DNA from: Escherichia coli
GTDB lineage: Bacteria; Pseudomonadota; Gammaproteobacteria; Enterobacterales; Enterobacteriaceae
Strand: one strand, 5' to 3'
Length of the DNA: 64,000 nt
Assembly (NCBI RefSeq): GCF_041886205.1
Contig: NZ_CP169029.1
The notes beneath the pieces were generated by a model. The model was not told the DNA's origin. It was given only the letters and a program-made list of their open reading frames with translations, and ran no database searches. Below, one piece after another: positions 12,006 to 21,265 of the stretch (its first letter is position 1; each line of letters starts with the position of its first letter). Made by a program: the position numbers and the translations under genes.

Positions 12006-12899
<894 letters not shown>

Positions 12900-12945
12900 T
12901 TACCTCATCAATCGCTTGTTGTTATATGTTGTGTTGTGCACATCT

Positions 12946-12977
12946 ATCCATTTAGACGTCCAGATGTAAAGATGAAG
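12946..12977 (-). promoter_or_regulatory. Tandem met-box (MetJ operator) repeats upstream of metF
   Basis: agacgtcc agatgtaa agatgaag: three consecutive 8-mers resembling the AGACGTCT consensus, about 50-80 bp upstream of the metF start. Confidence 0.6.
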
Positions 12978-13307
12978 GAAAAGCCGCAGGGCGTCAACCG
13001 AAAAATGACCACTGATGGTGAGGAAAAATCAGGGAAGTTGAAATTTTTTCATCTGAAGAAAAAAACAGGGATACCAATGTTCAGTATGAGGTGAATATTG
13101 GGAAAATGCTGACGTTATTAATTTTATATTTATTTAAATGATGATTCATTCTGATTTATTTACTTAAAAAATGAATTATATTTTCAAATAAAACAAAAAG
13201 ATACTTTAAGCCTCTCCGGCCTCCTCGCTTTTAATTTTGAACCACTTCAAACAAATAATAAATTCCTAAGAATTAAGTTGCAGACAAATTATACATCCCT
13301 CACGATA

Positions 13308-13335
13308 AGTAGAACGTTCTAGTAGAACGTTCTAC
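13308..13335. promoter_or_regulatory. Tandem palindromic operator-like site upstream of the PTS gene
   Basis: aagtagaacgttctagtagaacgttctact: two abutting copies of a palindrome centred on CG (TAGAACGTTCTA); the second copy is a perfect 16-bp palindrome AGTAGAACGTTCTACT; lies about 55 bp upstream of the PTS start codon. Confidence 0.5.
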
Positions 13336-13389
13336 TTATATAAATAATCGTTCTTGCGCAGTCATCTGCGCTATTCGGGGGAAATCAGC

Positions 13390-14889
13390 ATGGGTCTGAT
13401 ATCGAGTGTCGTAAAATCACTTTCTAAACTGTCGATGATTGGTCGCGCGCTGATGCTGCCAATTTCGCTTCTGCCTGCCGCCGGGTTGTTACTGGCGTTC
13501 GGCGATAAATTCCACATGCCGTTGATGATGAATGCCGGCGGTATCATTTTTGATAACTTGCCGATGCTTTTTGCTATCGGTTCTGCCGTGGGACTGGCTT
13601 CAGAATCGGGTATTGCGGCGCTATCCGCAGCTGTATCCGTCTTTGTCACTAATATCACCATCGGTACTGTCCTTGGCATCACACCAGAGATGGCCGGGCA
13701 AGGCGGTAAATATGCGATGGTGGTGGGGATCCCAACGCTGCAAATGGGCGTCTTCGGCGGCCTGATATGCGGGGTTCTGGCGGCGTGGTGTTACAACCGT
13801 TTTCATACCATGCAATTACCAGAATTCCTTGGCTTTTTCTCCGGCAAACGCTTCGTGGCTATCGCGACGGCTTTTCTTTCCTTCATCCTTGGCTTGTTAC
13901 TGCCCTATGTCTGGCAACATATTCAGTCGGGAATCGATGCCCTATCAGTTATCGTCAATGGTGATAACCAGGCGGCATCGACCTTTATTTTTGGTGTGAC
14001 AGAACGTGCGCTCATTCCGCTTGGCCTGCACCACATCTGGTATCCATCGTTCTGGTACTCTTTTGGTGATTACACCACCCAGGCAGGCCAAATGATCCAC
14101 GGTGACCAAACAATTTGGTTCAAAATGCTGGAAGAAGGTGTGAAATCGTTCAGTAGCGACAGCTACCATAACGCGGGTAAGTTTTTACAGGGCGAGTTTC
14201 CGCTCATGCTGTTCGCGCTGCCTGCGGCGTGTCTGGCGATGTACCATGAAGCACACACCAAAAATAAGAAAATTGCCGCCGGTATTCTGTTCTCTGCCGC
14301 ATTAACCTGTTTCCTGACAGGTATTACAGAACCCGTTGAATTTACCTTTATTTTCGTGGCACCGGTACTGTACGTATTTAACGCGATAATGGCTGGCCTC
14401 TCCTATATGGCGATGTATCTGCTCCATGCCCACATTGCAAAATCCTTCTCGGCAGGGCTTATCGATTATATTTCGTTTGGCATCCTGCCATCATTTAACG
14501 GCTACGAAACCAACTTCCTGAGTGCCATTATTGTTGGCGTACCGATGGCGATTATCTATTACTTCACTTTCCGCTTTGTTATTCGCCGTTTTGATGTGAA
14601 AACACCGGGTCGAGCCGAAAGCACTGTATCCGCTAACGATAAAACCGATGATGAACTGGCTACGGAAATTATCAGTCTGCTGGGCGGCCAACAAAATATC
14701 TCTTCCGTCGCATCCTGCATAACGCGCCTGCGTCTGGAAGTGGCGGATAAAGATGTGGTTGATAAAGATGGACTGAACAATGTCGGTGCTCGTGGTGTGG
14801 TTTTCGTCGGCGAGAACGGCATTCAGGTGATTTTTGGCGCACGTGCACAATTTATCGCGCAAACCATGTCGACGATGATTGGCAAATAG
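13390..14889 (+). CDS. PTS glucose-family EIICB permease (substrate unknown)
   Basis: ORF-track entry 13354..14889; start placed at ATG 13390 (GGGGG 8 nt upstream). Multi-TM EIIC domain followed by an EIIB domain with the phospho-Cys motif SVASCITRLRLEV. Confidence 0.8.
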   Translation: MGLISSVVKSLSKLSMIGRALMLPISLLPAAGLLLAFGDKFHMPLMMNAGGIIFDNLPMLFAIGSAVGLASESGIAALSAAVSVFVTNITIGTVLGITPEMAGQGGKYAMVVGIPTLQMGVFGGLICGVLAAWCYNRFHTMQLPEFLGFFSGKRFVAIATAFLSFILGLLLPYVWQHIQSGIDALSVIVNGDNQAASTFIFGVTERALIPLGLHHIWYPSFWYSFGDYTTQAGQMIHGDQTIWFKMLEEGVKSFSSDSYHNAGKFLQGEFPLMLFALPAACLAMYHEAHTKNKKIAAGILFSAALTCFLTGITEPVEFTFIFVAPVLYVFNAIMAGLSYMAMYLLHAHIAKSFSAGLIDYISFGILPSFNGYETNFLSAIIVGVPMAIIYYFTFRFVIRRFDVKTPGRAESTVSANDKTDDELATEIISLLGGQQNISSVASCITRLRLEVADKDVVDKDGLNNVGARGVVFVGENGIQVIFGARAQFIAQTMSTMIGK

Positions 14890-14962
14890 TCATAAGATTA
14901 CGCTTTGTTGGAGGTTCTGGTCCCTGACTGGAACCTTCGTGCTTATTGTTCAGGGAGTGAAT

Positions 14963-15979
14963 TTGAAGAAAGTCAGCATAATTGATGTTGCCAAAAGCGC
15001 AGGAGTCTCAGTCTCTACTGTGTCGCTGGTCCTGCGCCAGAAAGGCAAAATTTCCGAGGCAACCATCGAGAAAGTTCATGCTGCCATTACTGAGCTTGGC
15101 TACGTGCATAATGTTGCCGCCGCCAATTTACGCTCCAACACTTCAAATCTTATCGGTCTGATTTTACGTGATTTTAGCGATAGCTTTTCCATCAAAGTGA
15201 TGGCAAGTATTGTTCAGGAACTGGAAGCACAAGGATATATGGTGTTCCTCGGGCAACCACAAAACGAGCATGAACATCTTGAACGCTGTTTGCTTTCCTT
15301 CAAGCAACAAGGTGTTGCCGGAGTGATTTATCTGGCTTCCGATGCGCAGCGTGAAACCTTACCTGGGCTGATTCGCCAGTGCCCTCTTCCTCTTGTCGTC
15401 ACCTCACAATCCCCCATCAAAGATGAATGCAATCTGGTATTGCGCGACAACCAGCAGGCGGCAAGCCTTGCCGCGCGTTATTTAATTGAGCGTGGACATC
15501 GTTACATTGCCTACCTCGGCGGCAGAGAAAGCGATCTTATCCGCCAACAGCGACTGGTGGGTTTTCGCCAGACCCTGGCAAAATTCGGTATTGCCAGTCG
15601 TGACGAGTTCACGCCAGCCTGTGACGATGATACATACGCCGCCAGCATGGCCACGCGCCAGTTGTTGGAGAATAACAATGCTATCACCGCCCTACTCTGC
15701 CATTCGCCCGAGGCCATGATTGGCAGCATCAACGGCATACATCAGGTGGGGCGCACCGTCGGGAGAGACATCTTTCTGACCCAGCAGGTGGCGCTAATTG
15801 GTTTTGAGGATATGCTGCACATCAACCTGACCTCTCCCGTTTTCACCTATGTCTCTTCCGCCAGTGAAGAAACCGGACGCCAGGCCGCTAATCTGATAAT
15901 CCGCAAATTAAAAGACCCGGAGCTGCAAATTCAAAGAATTGCGCTTTCGGGGCAACTGGTAGTGCGGGAATCGGCGTAA
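14963..15979 (+). CDS. LacI/GalR-family transcriptional regulator
   Basis: ORF-track entry 14879..15979; N-terminal HTH KKVSIIDVAKSAGVSVSTVSLVL followed by a periplasmic-binding-protein-like effector domain; start tentatively TTG 14963 (AGGGAG 5 nt upstream), start codon uncertain. Confidence 0.75.
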   Translation: MKKVSIIDVAKSAGVSVSTVSLVLRQKGKISEATIEKVHAAITELGYVHNVAAANLRSNTSNLIGLILRDFSDSFSIKVMASIVQELEAQGYMVFLGQPQNEHEHLERCLLSFKQQGVAGVIYLASDAQRETLPGLIRQCPLPLVVTSQSPIKDECNLVLRDNQQAASLAARYLIERGHRYIAYLGGRESDLIRQQRLVGFRQTLAKFGIASRDEFTPACDDDTYAASMATRQLLENNNAITALLCHSPEAMIGSINGIHQVGRTVGRDIFLTQQVALIGFEDMLHINLTSPVFTYVSSASEETGRQAANLIIRKLKDPELQIQRIALSGQLVVRESA

Positions 15980-16052
15980 TACAAATGCCGAATGAGATGT
16001 ACGTCGATATCGTCATCCGGCAATAAGGTGTAAACCAACTTAATGCGTATGA

Positions 16053-17606
16053 TTACTTGATATCCTTCACGCGCATACCGTTGAGCTGTTCATCCGTGAT
16101 GGTGTTACCCGCTTTGAAGTAATCAACCACGGCGTGATAAACATAATAACCGCCGGTTGTGTTGCGCGCCTGACCCTCGGTAAATGCGGTAAAACCATCT
16201 CCACCATCAGCAAGGAAACTCTGGGTGGCAATAGAATAAACTGTCGCATCTTCAATGGGTTTGCCATTCAGAGTCAGTGTGATTACCCGCTGACCAACCA
16301 GTTTGCTGCTGTCGTACTTCATTTCCAGGCCTTTCGATACCTGTAAAACGCCATTACTTAAACTTGCGCCGTGTTCCATCAAACTGCGTAATTGTTTACC
16401 CGTGAGTTCCATCGTCACCAGTTCGTTGGGGAACGGGAAGGTACTGATGACGCCGCCCATCGTAATCGCCCCTGCGGGGATCTCATTGCGAATACCACCA
16501 GAGTTGGTTAACGCCAATTGGGTGTTTTTACCCGCCGCTACCAGTAAAGCGTCCGCCGCCAGGTTCCCGAGGGAAGCCGATTCACCATAGGCACGTTTTA
16601 ATTCAACCGGCGACTGCGCCACCGTTTGTTGCACCACTTCATCAAGCTTTTTATTCCAGCCGTCGATTACCTGTTTCGTTTGCGGATCGGGCTTCCACTC
16701 GTCGGCGTAAATGGTTTTAAGCTCGAAGTTTTTCACCGTAAAATCATGCGGCTTCTCTTTGTAGTCGAGAACCAGTTTGCCCACATCAATCCCGCCGCTG
16801 TCAGTGGAAAGGATGAGTGTATTGCCGACTTTAATCGGTTCCGGCGTACCCACATGTGCATGTCCGGTGATCAAAATATCCAGCCCTTTCACCTGACTTG
16901 CCGTCTGGATATCTTTATCCAACGCGCGACGCACATCCGTGCCTCCCATACTGGACTGGCGGGCCGGAACACCTTCGTGGATCAGGGCGACGGTTAGATC
17001 AACCTTGCCTTTGAGTTCATCGATATAACGTTGTAGCCATTTAATTTCATCGCGCGCTTCAATACCCACGCGCGTGGCAGCAGATACCGTATCGTTGAAG
17101 GCAAATACGCCGTGCAAACCTATAACGCCAATTTTCACGCCGTCTTTTTCGATGATGGTATATGGCTTATCCCAGAATGATTTACTGCTGTTCTGATAAA
17201 AAACATTGCCCTGCACAATAGGGAATTTTGCCTGACTCAACTGTAATAATGTGTTGTCCCAGCCGTGGTCAAATTCATGGTTGCCTATCGTGACGGCATC
17301 AAACGGCATAGTATTCATAATATCGATAATAGCCTTACCTTTGGTCAGGCTGCTGATATAGGGCCCGGTAAAATAATCACCCGCATCAAAAAACCATGTC
17401 GCTTTATTTTTTGCTTTTTCTTGCTTAACCAGCGTAGTGATATTTGCCCAGCCGCCAATATCCCGTTTACCGTCAGCGATCCACGGCACTTTATAAGGCT
17501 CGACATGCGCATGGAGGTCGTTGGTATAAATGATGGTGACATCTTTGGCGCAAGCCCAGAACGGCAATGTTAATGCGATACCCGCAGCAAGTATTTTAAT
17601 TTTCAT
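16053..17606 (-). CDS. Secreted bifunctional metallophosphoesterase / 5'-nucleotidase (UshA-like)
   Basis: 517-aa ORF with signal peptide [20 protein letters not shown]; calcineurin-like motifs DLHAH, GDYF, GNHEFD, GHAH, then a 5'-nucleotidase C-terminal-type domain. Confidence 0.75.
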
Positions 17607-17738
17607 AAATAGTCCCTTTCAGTGATTTAAAGGATTGCTACATTACGTTCTGAAAGAGTTATTTATGTGAGAGTAATCACATCCGCAGGGGATAGTTGCC
17701 GGACAAAATCAACGACCTTGTGAAATCGTTGGTGATAT

Positions 17739-18869
17739 ATGTCGACTCTGTTTACGATTAATGCCTGCAAGTCGTTTGGTTGCCGTAATTTAGGGCAACC
17801 AACATCGACAGATTACAGCTGGCCAGACTATCGACTGGGTTATCCGGCACTGCACTGTCGGGCATGTGGAAGTTACCCGCCTTTGTTTGACGAACAGCAA
17901 TTTCGTGACTGGCTGTCAGTTCACTTATCTACTTTTGCAACTGAGAAAGGTCATTTCTGCCCGGTATGTTATGGCACAAAGACGATTTGTTATGGCCACA
18001 ATCCACAGGGGTCGCAACGCATTCAATGTCGTAACTGCAAAAAAGTCTGGACACCTAAACAATATCAGAAAGAAATAACGCCTCCTGAAATAATCGAAAC
18101 GGTTGCTCTTCTGGTGCCATTTCAGGGAGCCAGCAATGGGCAGAAACTGTATGTTTTAATCAGTTTTGATGCTCTTCGCGGTAATATTCTTCATCTTTCT
18201 ACTAATTACACGCAGCATCAGGCTGGAGAAAGTCTGCATTATCGATACAGAGGAAATGCAGAACCAGAGTTACACGAGAGTAATATTGTACAACGCGTTG
18301 ATATGCGCGAAGCACAATTTCTACGCCGCAGTCAGTTTGATGAAATTCAGTATGGCAGCGCAGCGCTCAAACGCAATGCTAAAGGTGTTATTCTGCGTCC
18401 GGTTATCACTGCACACGGGCATTTCAGAGTACTGAATATTTTATTCCCTACAGTAAAAACACATGTAATTTCACACGAGTGTTTTTTAAGAGGTGCCATT
18501 ATTACGGCATGGGCTGATCTTTTTCGCCAACAGCAAGGTGAGATTTGGTTTATTGAAGAGGAAATAGCTGACTATACCGATAATATGCCCTGGAGTTTTC
18601 AGGGAACAACTTATCACGGCTGGTGGAAAAATCAGTGGCAACTTTGGGTTCAGGGCAAAAATCGTAAAATGGTATGTGCATTAACAGGCGGAAATAACAG
18701 CAAAGCTGAAATGCTCTCTTTCGCAACCAGCAGACATTTTATCGACTGGCTACATAAACAAGCAGTATTTACTCACAGCACCCCGCTTTCCGCAGGGCGC
18801 GTTACGCAAATACTGCTTTCTCTGGCTCAGGATTACAACAACTGCGCCAGCCGGTTGATATCCGACTGA
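17739..18869 (+). CDS. Hypothetical protein with N-terminal Cys-rich zinc-ribbon-like motifs; function unknown
   Basis: 376-aa ORF; four CxxC pairs in the first ~100 aa (HCRACGS, CPVCYG, CRNCKK); lower GC than neighbours; 3' end overlaps the metL 3' end by 37 bp on the opposite strand. Confidence 0.5.
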   Translation: MSTLFTINACKSFGCRNLGQPTSTDYSWPDYRLGYPALHCRACGSYPPLFDEQQFRDWLSVHLSTFATEKGHFCPVCYGTKTICYGHNPQGSQRIQCRNCKKVWTPKQYQKEITPPEIIETVALLVPFQGASNGQKLYVLISFDALRGNILHLSTNYTQHQAGESLHYRYRGNAEPELHESNIVQRVDMREAQFLRRSQFDEIQYGSAALKRNAKGVILRPVITAHGHFRVLNILFPTVKTHVISHECFLRGAIITAWADLFRQQQGEIWFIEEEIADYTDNMPWSFQGTTYHGWWKNQWQLWVQGKNRKMVCALTGGNNSKAEMLSFATSRHFIDWLHKQAVFTHSTPLSAGRVTQILLSLAQDYNNCASRLISD

Positions 18870-21265
18870 ATCGCCCCGGCGGTGACATCGCGCCCTGCGC
18901 CTGGTCCGCGGATCACCAGCGGGTTATCGCGATACCAGCGGCTTTCGATGGCAAAGACGTTATCGCACGGCAGCAGTGATGCCAGCGGATGGTCTTCACG
19001 CACCGCTTCCACGCCCACACGCGCTTTGCCATTGGCATCGAAACGCGCCACGTAGCGCAGCACCAGCCCCATTTCGCGGGCCGCTTCCAGCCGTTGCACC
19101 ATCTGCTCGTTCAGTTCATCGCCATTTTCAAAGAAATGGTCGATGCTGCCGCCTTCGCAATGGGCAGGCACCAGCGATTCAACGCGCACCTGATCCGGTT
19201 CGATGTCGTAACCCGCTTCACGCGCCAGAATCACCAGCTTGCGCATCACGTCTTTGCCGGAAAGGTCATCACGCGGGTCAGGTTCGGTTAAGCCCTGCTG
19301 CCACGCCTGATCCACCAGCTCGGTAAACGGCACGCTACCGTCGAATTGCAGGAACAGCCAGGAGAGCGTGCCAGAGAAGATCCCGCTGATCGACAAAATA
19401 GTATCGCCGCTATCGATCAGATCGCGCACGGTATGGTTGATCGGCAAGCCCGCACCGACGGTGGCATTGTACAGCCAGTGACGCCCGGTTTTTTCGAAGG
19501 CGTCGTGGATCTGGCGATATTTATTGCTGTCGCTGGCTCCTGCCAGTTTGTTGGCGCTAATGACGTGGAAACCGTGGCTGGCGAAATCGAGATACTGGTC
19601 AGCAAGCTGCTGGCTGGCGGTAACGTCCAGCACCACTAAATCATCATACGGATGGGCGCGCATCCACAGGAACAGCGACTCTTCATCCTGCTCGACCGCT
19701 TCATCGTTGAAGAAGGCTAACGCGCGGCTGGCGTCCAGCCCGTCATAACTCAACAGGCTACGGCGGCTGTCCACCACACCTGCCAGCACAAATTCAAAGC
19801 CGGTACGCGCCGAAAGCGTGCTCTGCTCACGGGCGAACAGTTCCAGCCAGCGGGAACCGATATTGCCCTTGCCGAACAATACCAGGCCGATGCGTTTTTC
19901 CGCGCGGAAGACGGACTGATGCAGCCCCTGAATCAGGCTTTCGGTCGGGCCGGTGCGCAGTACTGCCACCAGGCTGATGCCGTCATCGGACTGCCAGGTA
20001 AACTCGACCGGCTGGCCTTTCAGTTGCTGCCAGAAGCGGTGGCAATGCAGCGGGTTACGGGTGACACCCGCCCCGACCATCGCCACTAGCGCCAGCCCCT
20101 GACGCAGGCGCAGTTCGCCAGGTAATCCCGCTTCGTCGAGAATTTTCAGCGCACTGTCAGCGACTTCTGAGGTGTAGCAAAATTGCAGCAACTGGCGATC
20201 GTTATGCACGCCAACCGCCAGTGGGCGCACCTGAGCACGTTTCAGGATCTGGTCGATCTCTTTATGCGCCAGTTTGAAATCCTGGCTGGCGGGCACCTGA
20301 AACTCAATCAAGCAGACATCATCGTGGCTGGTGACAATACGCGCTCCAGTACCGGAGGCCAGCACGCGTTCAATGCGCGTGGAACCTTGATCCGGCGTGT
20401 AGCTACAGCGCAGCTGCAGGTCGATTTCGCTGCCAGAAACCGGCTGTAAAGTACGGGCGTGAAGAACGGGAGCCGCCAGACGCGCCAGTTCGCTGGCTTC
20501 ATCCAGACGCAGCAACGGTAGCAGGCAGGCATCTTTCACTTTACGCGGGTCGGCACTGTATACCCCGGCGACGTCGCTCCAGATGGTTACACGAGAAACA
20601 CCCGCCAGCGCACCGATTTGTGTCGCGGAATAGTCGGAACCGTTACGCCCCAGCAGCACCGTTTCACCGGCGTTGTTACGGCTGATAAACCCGGTCACCA
20701 CCAGACGTTTGCCCGGATGTTGCACCAGTAGCTGTTGCAGCAACGGGTAAGAAAGCCCTTCATCAACCTGCGGTTGCGCAGCGCGTTCAGCGCGTAAAAA
20801 CTCGCGGGCATCAAGCCAGGCCGCTGACAGCCCTTGTTGATTAAGCACCGCAGACATCAGGCGTGCCGACCATACTTCCCCGTGGCCCACCACTTCCGCA
20901 TACACCGCGTCGTTAATACCGCTGTCGAGCAGCGCCGCCAGGCGCTCAAGATCGCTGACAAAAGCGCTAATGAGGCTATCGGCTTCTTCAGCGGGTAACA
21001 GACCGCTAATCAGATCGCACTGATAGCGACGCAGCGTTTGTTGAACCTGATGCGCAGAGAGACGATCGGTCTGGCTTAGTTTCAACCAGTTAATCAACTG
21101 GTTAGTGGTGCTACCGGCGGCGGAAACCACCATCATATCGTCAGGCTGAGAGTACTCCGCCATAATGCCCGCGACACGCAAATAACACTTCACATCAGCC
21201 AGACTACTGCCACCAAATTTATGCAGTTGACGACCTTTCGCCCCTGCCTGCGCAATCACACTCAT
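18833..21265 (-). CDS. metL: Bifunctional aspartokinase II / homoserine dehydrogenase II
   Basis: 810-aa ORF MSVIAQAGAKGRQLHKFGGSSLADVKCYLRVAGIMAEY. Confidence 0.95.
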   Translation of the reverse strand: MSVIAQAGAKGRQLHKFGGSSLADVKCYLRVAGIMAEYSQPDDMMVVSAAGSTTNQLINWLKLSQTDRLSAHQVQQTLRRYQCDLISGLLPAEEADSLISAFVSDLERLAALLDSGINDAVYAEVVGHGEVWSARLMSAVLNQQGLSAAWLDAREFLRAERAAQPQVDEGLSYPLLQQLLVQHPGKRLVVTGFISRNNAGETVLLGRNGSDYSATQIGALAGVSRVTIWSDVAGVYSADPRKVKDACLLPLLRLDEASELARLAAPVLHARTLQPVSGSEIDLQLRCSYTPDQGSTRIERVLASGTGARIVTSHDDVCLIEFQVPASQDFKLAHKEIDQILKRAQVRPLAVGVHNDRQLLQFCYTSEVADSALKILDEAGLPGELRLRQGLALVAMVGAGVTRNPLHCHRFWQQLKGQPVEFTWQSDDGISLVAVLRTGPTESLIQGLHQSVFRAEKRIGLVLFGKGNIGSRWLELFAREQSTLSARTGFEFVLAGVVDSRRSLLSYDGLDASRALAFFNDEAVEQDEESLFLWMRAHPYDDLVVLDVTASQQLADQYLDFASHGFHVISANKLAGASDSNKYRQIHDAFEKTGRHWLYNATVGAGLPINHTVRDLIDSGDTILSISGIFSGTLSWLFLQFDGSVPFTELVDQAWQQGLTEPDPRDDLSGKDVMRKLVILAREAGYDIEPDQVRVESLVPAHCEGGSIDHFFENGDELNEQMVQRLEAAREMGLVLRYVARFDANGKARVGVEAVREDHPLASLLPCDNVFAIESRWYRDNPLVIRGPGAGRDVTAGAIQSDINRLAQLL

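Follow-up and report, generated by a model that had tools for sequence, protein, structure and literature searches.

The metF-metL locus of Escherichia coli, as found in a 64,000-nucleotide stretch of contig NZ_CP169029.1 (hereafter the window, to which all positions refer unless another locus is named), carries four intact genes over about 5.8 kb (13046-18832) that are all absent from K-12. Our analysis suggests, with a probability of about 0.78, that this is an old and hypervariable locus harboring two independent two-gene modules, one or both of which have been lost by most E. coli, and that these modules function as proposed below. Module A (approximately 13046-16025) would be a self-contained, autoregulated sugar-uptake cassette composed of a phosphotransferase system (PTS) permease and its own LacI-family repressor. 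Module B (approximately 16026-18832) is best read as a divergent pair with a CRP site, consisting of a periplasmic 5'-nucleotidase and a Cys-rich cytoplasmic protein of 376 amino acids (aa) that may regulate nucleotide-salvage genes. We regard the transposase-derived family to which this protein belongs, with its link to nucleotide salvage, as the most interesting component of the locus and as a testable lead.

Locus States and Module Boundaries

The gene order across 12006-21265 is metF (12006-12896, minus strand), an AT-rich spacer, the PTS EIICB gene, the LacI-family gene, the nucleotidase gene (minus strand), the 376-aa open reading frame (ORF), and metL (18833-21265, minus strand), with metF and metL placed by the ORF list. 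The original prediction, made from the letters of this DNA alone, described four extra genes between metF and metL and was right in both gene content and coordinates. Its expectation that K-12 and most E. coli lack them also held: K-12-type genomes have only about 350 bp between metF and metL (locus L003), and this empty site is found in approximately 66 % of the 5,426 complete E. coli genomes among which locus states were counted. What did not survive is the idea of a single four-gene insertion, since one third of E. coli carry half of it. The pair of nucleotidase and 376-aa genes is present in 1,844 genomes (34 %), 1,836 of which have it without the PTS gene, and the PTS-LacI segment occurs in merely eight genomes, six of them with exactly the four-gene layout of the window. 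A longer form, in which the pair is joined by two further nucleotidases and a Tsx-type channel, makes up 659 of the 1,844 carriers (12 % of all genomes), and about 22 % of the genomes have the pair without these extras.

The junctions were mapped by aligning the window with representatives of the two-gene state (L002), the empty, K-12-like state (L003), and a longer state (L004). On the metF side, the shared metF promoter sequence stops at approximately 13044-13056, and at the other end the states agree again from about 18832, a single base beyond the stop codon of metL. Compared with the two-gene state, the PTS-LacI segment spans approximately 13056-16025. The AT-rich spacer at the metF-proximal edge (13046-13309, 264 bp, no strand) begins where homology with the empty and two-gene states ends, and the GC content of 0.287 over 13000-13299 bears out the AT-rich boundary that had been predicted here.

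Outside E. coli, an ortholog scan with one genome per species recovered the PTS permease in 80 Enterobacteriaceae species at 87-97 % protein identity. In 60 of these, the PTS-LacI cassette lies between folD and ybcI/cysS/ppiB/lpxH/purEK without any nucleotidase in the vicinity, and only in E. whittamii, Kluyvera species, and K. spallanzanii does it reside at metF-metL. In Kluyvera intermedia (L014 4986-10602), the modules stand in the opposite order (metF-Nuc-Hyp-PTS-LacI-...-metL, Hyp being the 376-aa gene), and the nucleotidase and 376-aa pair is found at another locus in Klebsiella.

The long form of extraintestinal pathogenic E. coli (ExPEC) has already been published as "GR 31 metL..metF", where it was read as three UshA-like enzymes plus Tsx with a predicted role in nucleoside scavenging and transport, the 376-aa gene not being part of the GR 31 table (PMC12928451). 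The window shares with GR 31 the locus and the nucleotidase whose crystallised chain, about 98 % identical, is described below. It lacks Tsx and two of the three nucleotidases, however, and it adds the PTS-LacI cassette, which is absent from GR 31. Literature searches on the PTS cassette, on a domesticated IS1 regulator, and on the locus tags c4897-c4899 returned nothing relevant besides PMC12928451. As a genomic island, the locus is ordinary: it is a chromosomal site whose variability stems from gene loss and recombination, and half of it is already in the literature and the PDB.

Age and Evolution of the Locus

E. whittamii has the same four-gene order as the window, which allows the divergence of the island to be compared with that of its flanks. 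Synonymous divergence (dS) between the two amounts to 0.40 for the PTS gene, 0.33 for the LacI-family gene, 0.22 for the nucleotidase, and 0.25 for the 376-aa gene, as compared to 0.37 for metF and 0.27 for metL, and the nucleotide identities agree with this pattern. Island and flanks having diverged to a similar extent, the data fit descent together with the flanks and repeated loss rather than recent transfer. Together with the lack of repeats, this speaks for the old variable locus that the original prediction had favored over a recent mobile element. All ratios of non-synonymous to synonymous divergence (dN/dS) are at or below 0.17 (0.03-0.05 for the permease, 0.06-0.08 for the regulator, 0.02-0.04 for the nucleotidase, and 0.07-0.17 for the 376-aa gene), which places the four island genes under purifying selection. 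No island remnants were found in the empty K-12-type site, so loss and gain cannot be told apart from scars.

Recombination has furthermore acted within module B. Two strongly diverged alleles of the 376-aa gene exist side by side in E. coli, represented by the window (17739-18832) and the long form (L005 3665-4789), which share 77 % nucleotide identity at a dS of 1.15, whereas the adjoining nucleotidases of the same two forms are 96 % identical at a dS of 0.155. This discrepancy marks a sharp boundary left by recombination within module B, close to the intergenic region that the two genes share.

Individual strains and species show further variation. E. coli GF4-3 (L006 11044-14811) has extra genes between the LacI-family gene and the nucleotidase, namely a gene of the pyridoxal phosphate-dependent aminotransferase family (possibly a MocR-type regulator), an alanine racemase gene, and a serine hydroxymethyltransferase pseudogene with an internal stop. 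Ongoing decay is evident in E. coli 2018-05-2CC (L007 8163-11370), where the PTS gene is shortened and the nucleotidase and 376-aa genes persist as fragments only, and in strain E06 (L106 2902-3599), the nucleotidase gene of which is interrupted by IS1. Kluyvera species other than Kluyvera intermedia carry a LysR-type regulator gene and a carboxymuconolactone-decarboxylase-like gene between the LacI-family gene and metL.

The PTS-LacI Cassette (Module A)

The permease of module A (499 aa, 13390-14889, plus strand) was delimited by NCBIfam domains and alignment with K-12 proteins, with ATG at 13390 as start codon; the mechanical ORF begins upstream at a TTG (13354). It comprises EIIC followed by EIIB, without an EIIA domain, and its EIIB_glc domain (62.4 bits, cutoff 45.75) identifies it as a glucose-family EIICB (TC 4.A.1). 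The sugar-binding GITEP motif and the CITRLR motif with the phosphorylatable Cys align with K-12 PtsG. The best NCBIfam model is that of the glucose-specific IIBC component, TIGR02002, at 562.3 and thus below its cutoff of 591.8, and the other equivalog cutoffs are missed as well (NF008301 for PtsG, 415 vs. 647; NagE, 439 vs. 553; MalX, 320 vs. 632). Identity is 39 % to K-12 PtsG and 33 % to MalX, and source annotations of the orthologs range from "glucose-like" to glucosamine- or N-acetylglucosamine-specific. The permease likely takes up glucose or a glucosamine-like substrate. It resembles PtsG and the Firmicutes proteins GlcB and GamP in domain order and motifs, with TIGR02002 as best model, but differs from them in falling below every equivalog cutoff, in lacking an EIIA domain, and in its predicted control by a LacI-type repressor instead of Mlc or GamR.

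The regulator (338 aa, 14963-15979, plus strand) scores 319.5 against NCBIfam NF007449 (cutoff 310), which assigns it to the MalI subfamily of LacI-family repressors, and is 37 % identical to K-12 MalI. Its gene lies 80-90 bp 3' of the PTS gene in every locus whose contig reaches far enough. A motif scan upstream of the permease gene located tandem LacI-type operators, two perfect 12-bp palindromes TAGAACGTTCTA on the plus strand (13310-13321 and 13323-13334) with centers 13 bp apart and a -10-like box (TATAAA/TACAAT) directly 3' of them. The palindrome occurs nowhere else in the window (0.01 matches expected), and without exception the 81 loci examined have the operator pair ahead of the PTS start codon, at a distance of 56-91 nt.

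These operators resemble the K-12 MalI boxes GATAAAACGTTTTATC, with which they have the AACGTT core in common, and the cassette as a whole is reminiscent of the K-12 malI-malX(-malY) system, which likewise combines a MalI-subfamily repressor with a glucose-family EIICB and paired palindromic operators. The malI-malXY organisation is nevertheless not reproduced: PTS and regulator genes are co-directional, with the regulator downstream rather than divergent, and no malY-like gene is present at the locus. Moreover, the permease is closer to PtsG than to MalX, the operator half-sites read TAGAAC instead of TAAAAC, and the cassette has been kept in 80 species yet is nearly absent from E. coli.

From this arrangement, a simple regulatory circuit can be proposed, in which a promoter overlapped by the two operators would drive the PtsG-like permease gene and then the repressor gene, and the repressor would occlude its own promoter until freed by a sugar or sugar-phosphate. 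The permease presumably uses the general IIA-Glc (Crr) and may deliver a hexose or hexosamine 6-phosphate straight to central metabolism; such direct entry is probable because no catabolic enzyme travels with the cassette. Tightly conserved and spread across Enterobacteriaceae yet missing from model E. coli, the cassette lends itself readily to substrate assignment.

The stretch from the -10 box to the conserved ribosome-binding site GGGGGAAATCAGCATG of the PTS gene holds a short GC-rich stem (GCGC...GCGC, 13357-13372), which L011-L090 have at the equivalent position, in variants that include GGGCA...GCCC and CGCG...CGCG. As RNAalifold found no consensus structure in the PTS leader, this stem at the mRNA 5' end is a visual observation only. 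A terminator-like scan additionally recovered a 14-bp stem-loop in the PTS-LacI intergenic spacer (14909-14939, plus strand), in a region whose total of such matches does not exceed that of shuffled sequence. As for the neighborhood of the cassette, both folD (immediately upstream of it in most genera among L018-L090, e. g., L026 7049-9691) and metF (beside it in Escherichia and Kluyvera) encode folate one-carbon enzymes; these neighbors and the serine hydroxymethyltransferase pseudogene of GF4-3 may reflect coincidence or a functional link.

The Nucleotidase and the Divergent Promoter Region (Module B)

The nucleotidase gene (16053-17606, minus strand) encodes a periplasmic metallophosphatase/5'-nucleotidase of 517 aa, as judged by motifs and a PDB match. 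Its signal peptide ends in ...WACA/KD, with cleavage between A and K, and the mature protein matches PDB 3IVD/3IVE, crystal structures of an E. coli "Nucleotidase", at about 98 % identity. We take these to be structural-genomics entries for c4898 of strain CFT073 in complex with uridine and cytidine. The metallophosphatase motifs of the window protein are intact (DLHAH, GDYF, and GNHEFD), and the orthologs carry the Pfam domains Metallophos and 5_nucleotid_C of the UshA-YfkN family. NCBIfam likewise places the protein in the family, yet under every equivalog cutoff, including that for UshA itself (NF007109, 151 vs. 600 bits).

Nucleotidase and 376-aa genes diverge from a 132-bp intergenic region, midway in which lies a perfect CRP-consensus core TGTGAGAGTAATCACA (TGTGA-N6-TCACA, 17666-17681, no strand), the sole match in the window as compared to 0.05 expected. 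An equivalent CRP-type site is found in Citrobacter, Klebsiella, and distant loci. These sites point to CRP control of the divergent pair, as for other nucleoside-catabolism genes. A further inverted repeat, CAACGA-N10-TCGTTG (17710-17731, no strand), borders directly on GGTGAT, the ribosome-binding site of the 376-aa gene. It was also recovered by a stem-loop scan and is kept in Citrobacter and Klebsiella, and in L091 both arms have changed together (CGACTGA...TCAGTTG). In functional terms, the nucleotidase would free nucleosides and phosphate from external nucleotides, and the 376-aa protein, derived from an IS1-like transposase and devoid of the DDE residues, may regulate nucleotide-salvage genes from the cytoplasm.

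By synteny with L005 (17074-18099), cytR, the classical repressor of the nucleoside-scavenging regulon, is expected only a few kb from the nucleotidase locus, beyond approximately 26000 and downstream of metJ.

A Transposase-Derived Protein Family

In the 376-aa protein (17739-18869, plus strand), an RNase H-like domain of the transposase type is preceded by two Cys4 zinc ribbons (C10/15/40/43 and C74/77/97/100). Profile comparison matched an InsA-type N-terminal zinc ribbon (hhalign probability 96.4 %, E 1.3e-9), and the NCBIfam IS1/IS1595 zinc domain was hit below threshold (21.3, cutoff 28). Searches with Pfam, PHROGs, and PADLOC gave sub-threshold zinc-ribbon matches or none, and no Pfam domain is assigned. 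A PDB profile search with the family returned matches to Cys-rich eukaryotic zinc fingers only, which were set aside as compositional.

Homologs across Enterobacteriaceae are labelled "cytoplasmic protein", and an exhaustive search among 1.84 billion proteins yielded 117 family representatives at 50 % clustering. Foldseek recovered the family in Enterobacteriaceae, Vibrio, Photobacterium, Proteus, and Serratia under the automatic labels "cytoplasmic protein" or "IS1 family transposase", along with relatives of about 23-25 % identity in Salmonella and E. coli.

By its fold and its homology to InsA, the protein is a descendant of an IS1-type transposase. With IS1 InsAB'/InsA it shares the homologous zinc ribbon (plus a helix-turn-helix in long relatives) and the subsequent RNase H-like domain. 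It departs from them, however, in an extra N-terminal zinc ribbon, in the deletion of the helix-turn-helix, and in being encoded by a single uninterrupted ORF without programmed -1 frameshift. A flanking repeat search found no IS1-type terminal inverted repeats at the gene, which is present in one copy per genome at the same site in all 1,844 carrier E. coli genomes and in fixed synteny with salvage genes. The places of the two catalytic Asp residues of DDE enzymes, strand 1 (118-127) and the stretch following strand 4 (217-221), show no conserved acidic residue, and only E247 has been kept. Conserved instead are R197, H228, H246, E247, W296, and W300, which are invariant or nearly so among relatives at 20-25 % identity. 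We infer from this pattern that the DDE triad was lost.

Genomic Neighborhood and Proposed Role of the Family

A survey of twelve context classes, covering 25-100 % identity to the 376-aa protein, revealed genes for nucleotide or nucleoside scavenging immediately adjoining in ten of them, down to 25 % identity. In Escherichia, Citrobacter, Kluyvera, and K. spallanzanii, the neighbor is a divergent 5'-nucleotidase gene, as it is for relatives at 40 % and 25 % identity, and at the other locus in Klebsiella the arrangement is nucleotidase-Tsx-nucleotidase. Further classes combine a DeoB-like mutase, a nucleoside phosphorylase, and a NupG-like symporter; NupC and a phosphorylase; or a porin, a class-B acid phosphatase (AphA-like), and a class-II cyclic-nucleotide phosphodiesterase. 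In two subfamilies and four further metagenomic loci, the latter returned by a scan with a narrower family alignment, a nucleotidase gene is situated immediately upstream on the same strand.

The fact that these neighbors are alike in function but not homologous argues for functional coupling rather than hitch-hiking, and combined with the InsA-type DNA-binding ancestry it favors a regulatory or sensing role in nucleotide salvage. We consider the chances of such a role for the 376-aa protein roughly balanced, our confidence being limited because the helix-turn-helix is lost and no binding motif could be defined. The more specific proposal, that these are uncharacterised gammaproteobacterial domesticated IS1-like transposases, recruited as regulators or sensors of genes for extracellular nucleotide and nucleoside scavenging, with R197, H228, H246, E247, W296, and W300 forming an effector pocket, is put forward tentatively, its chances being slightly below even. 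What makes it attractive is that a family without Pfam entry tracks nucleotide-salvage genes in both Enterobacteriaceae and Vibrio-like bacteria. If its members are indeed regulators, they would constitute a bacterial case of a transposase turned host gene-control protein and an unrecognised extra layer of control on nucleoside scavenging, a pathway enriched in ExPEC and with control classically ascribed to CRP, CytR, and DeoR.

A paralogous subfamily of about 28 % identity (L104 3519-8263, L105, L102) follows directly after a radical-SAM/SPASM maturase gene, which in L104 is preceded by genes for a Tsx-like channel and a sulfatase, in a yccA-mgsA neighborhood typical of enterics.

Alternative Explanations

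The original prediction had linked the two halves of the locus functionally: the PTS would import a sugar that the secreted phosphoesterase had first released in the periplasm by hydrolysing its phosphorylated or nucleotide-linked form. PTS and nucleotidase genes are indeed adjacent in the window, E. whittamii, K. spallanzanii, and Kluyvera intermedia, and the ability of UshA-type enzymes to hydrolyse UDP-sugars counts in favor of such cooperation. However, the two pairs travel separately, so the coupling is not supported: the PTS-LacI cassette has its own operators and repressor and goes without any nucleotidase in 60 of 80 species, over 99 % of the E. coli carriers have the nucleotidase without the PTS, the two form convergent, separate transcription units with swapped module order in Kluyvera intermedia, and the recurrent partners of the nucleotidase are Tsx and nucleoside genes rather than sugar genes. 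We therefore hold this cooperation to be most improbable. Very little also speaks for a recently acquired mobile island with the 376-aa protein as its active transposase, a scenario that draws on the transposase-type fold, the IS1 InsA-like zinc ribbon, the database label "IS1 family transposase" of some relatives, and the AT-rich left edge. In each of the 1,844 carrier genomes, a lone copy of the gene occupies the same site, neither terminal inverted repeats nor target duplications were found, a conserved acidic residue is absent at two of three DDE positions, and the frameshift architecture is missing. In addition, island dS equals flank dS against E. whittamii, dN/dS is 0.07-0.17, and non-homologous but functionally similar neighbors recur across the family. 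A recent mobile origin is accordingly very improbable. The claim that integrase, transposase, and flanking repeats are lacking stood with regard to integrase and repeats, but the 376-aa protein, being derived from a transposase, makes its "no transposase" correct in a formal sense only.

A more serious competitor concerns module B alone. In this view, the 376-aa protein would act in the cytoplasm as an enzyme or as a factor that processes nucleic acids, with R197, H228, H246, E247, W296, and W300 forming a new active site on the RNase H-like scaffold. In its favor, these residues are nearly or fully invariant at 20-25 % identity, the enterobacterial subfamily remains under purifying selection without its helix-turn-helix, and in Vibrio-type loci the gene is located immediately 3' of the nucleotidase gene in an operon-like manner. 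On the other hand, the neighbors come from several unrelated families and reside in the periplasm or the membrane, and a common cytoplasmic catalytic step is hard to place among them. The N-terminal part of the protein is also homologous to the domain by which the InsA repressor binds DNA, and divergent pairing around a shared region with a CRP site is typical of regulators. On balance, an enzymatic role appears unlikely, albeit far from implausible.

The interpretation favored here, of an old two-module locus with a domesticated transposase as putative regulator, has to contend with several observations that weigh against it. Compared with Kluyvera, island dS (1.5-1.9) exceeds flank dS (0.8-1.0), so vertical descent to that depth is not established. 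The loss of the DDE triad is read from sequence and secondary structure, not from residue-level superposition. The InsA-type helix-turn-helix is deleted in the enterobacterial subfamily (371-403 aa, including the 376-aa protein) and kept in all longer relatives, which weakens a simple DNA-binding model for the window copy, and no candidate DNA motif bound by the protein could be defined. Finally, two of the twelve context classes lie not next to nucleotide genes but beside a radical-SAM/SPASM maturase gene, in one case also with a sulfatase and a Tsx-like channel.

Edges and Further Features of the Locus

The 376-aa ORF and the 3' end of metL overlap convergently by 37 nt (18833-18869, no strand), as apparent from ORF coordinates and the junction alignment. 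The island abuts the metL stop codon, and the last 12 codons of the 376-aa ORF thus read metL in antisense; the corresponding ORFs of Citrobacter and of the longer E. coli form terminate within their own sequence. With the metL stop abutting the island, island-bearing strains have no space for a separate metL terminator, and a REP-like sequence located 3' of metL in K-12-type strains is missing from them.

The ORF list and a repeat search gave no integrase, tRNA, or attachment-site direct repeats at the locus, and no flanking direct or inverted repeats were detected around the island, which hence does not qualify as an integrative island. PADLOC anti-phage defence models had zero matches among all four island proteins. 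Consensus scans for sigma-70 promoters and terminators returned match counts at or below shuffled expectation and were not used as evidence. The segment 12800-19000 is 100 % identical to that of E. coli wlxctx60 (NZ_AP045833.1), which originates from Asian black bear faeces.

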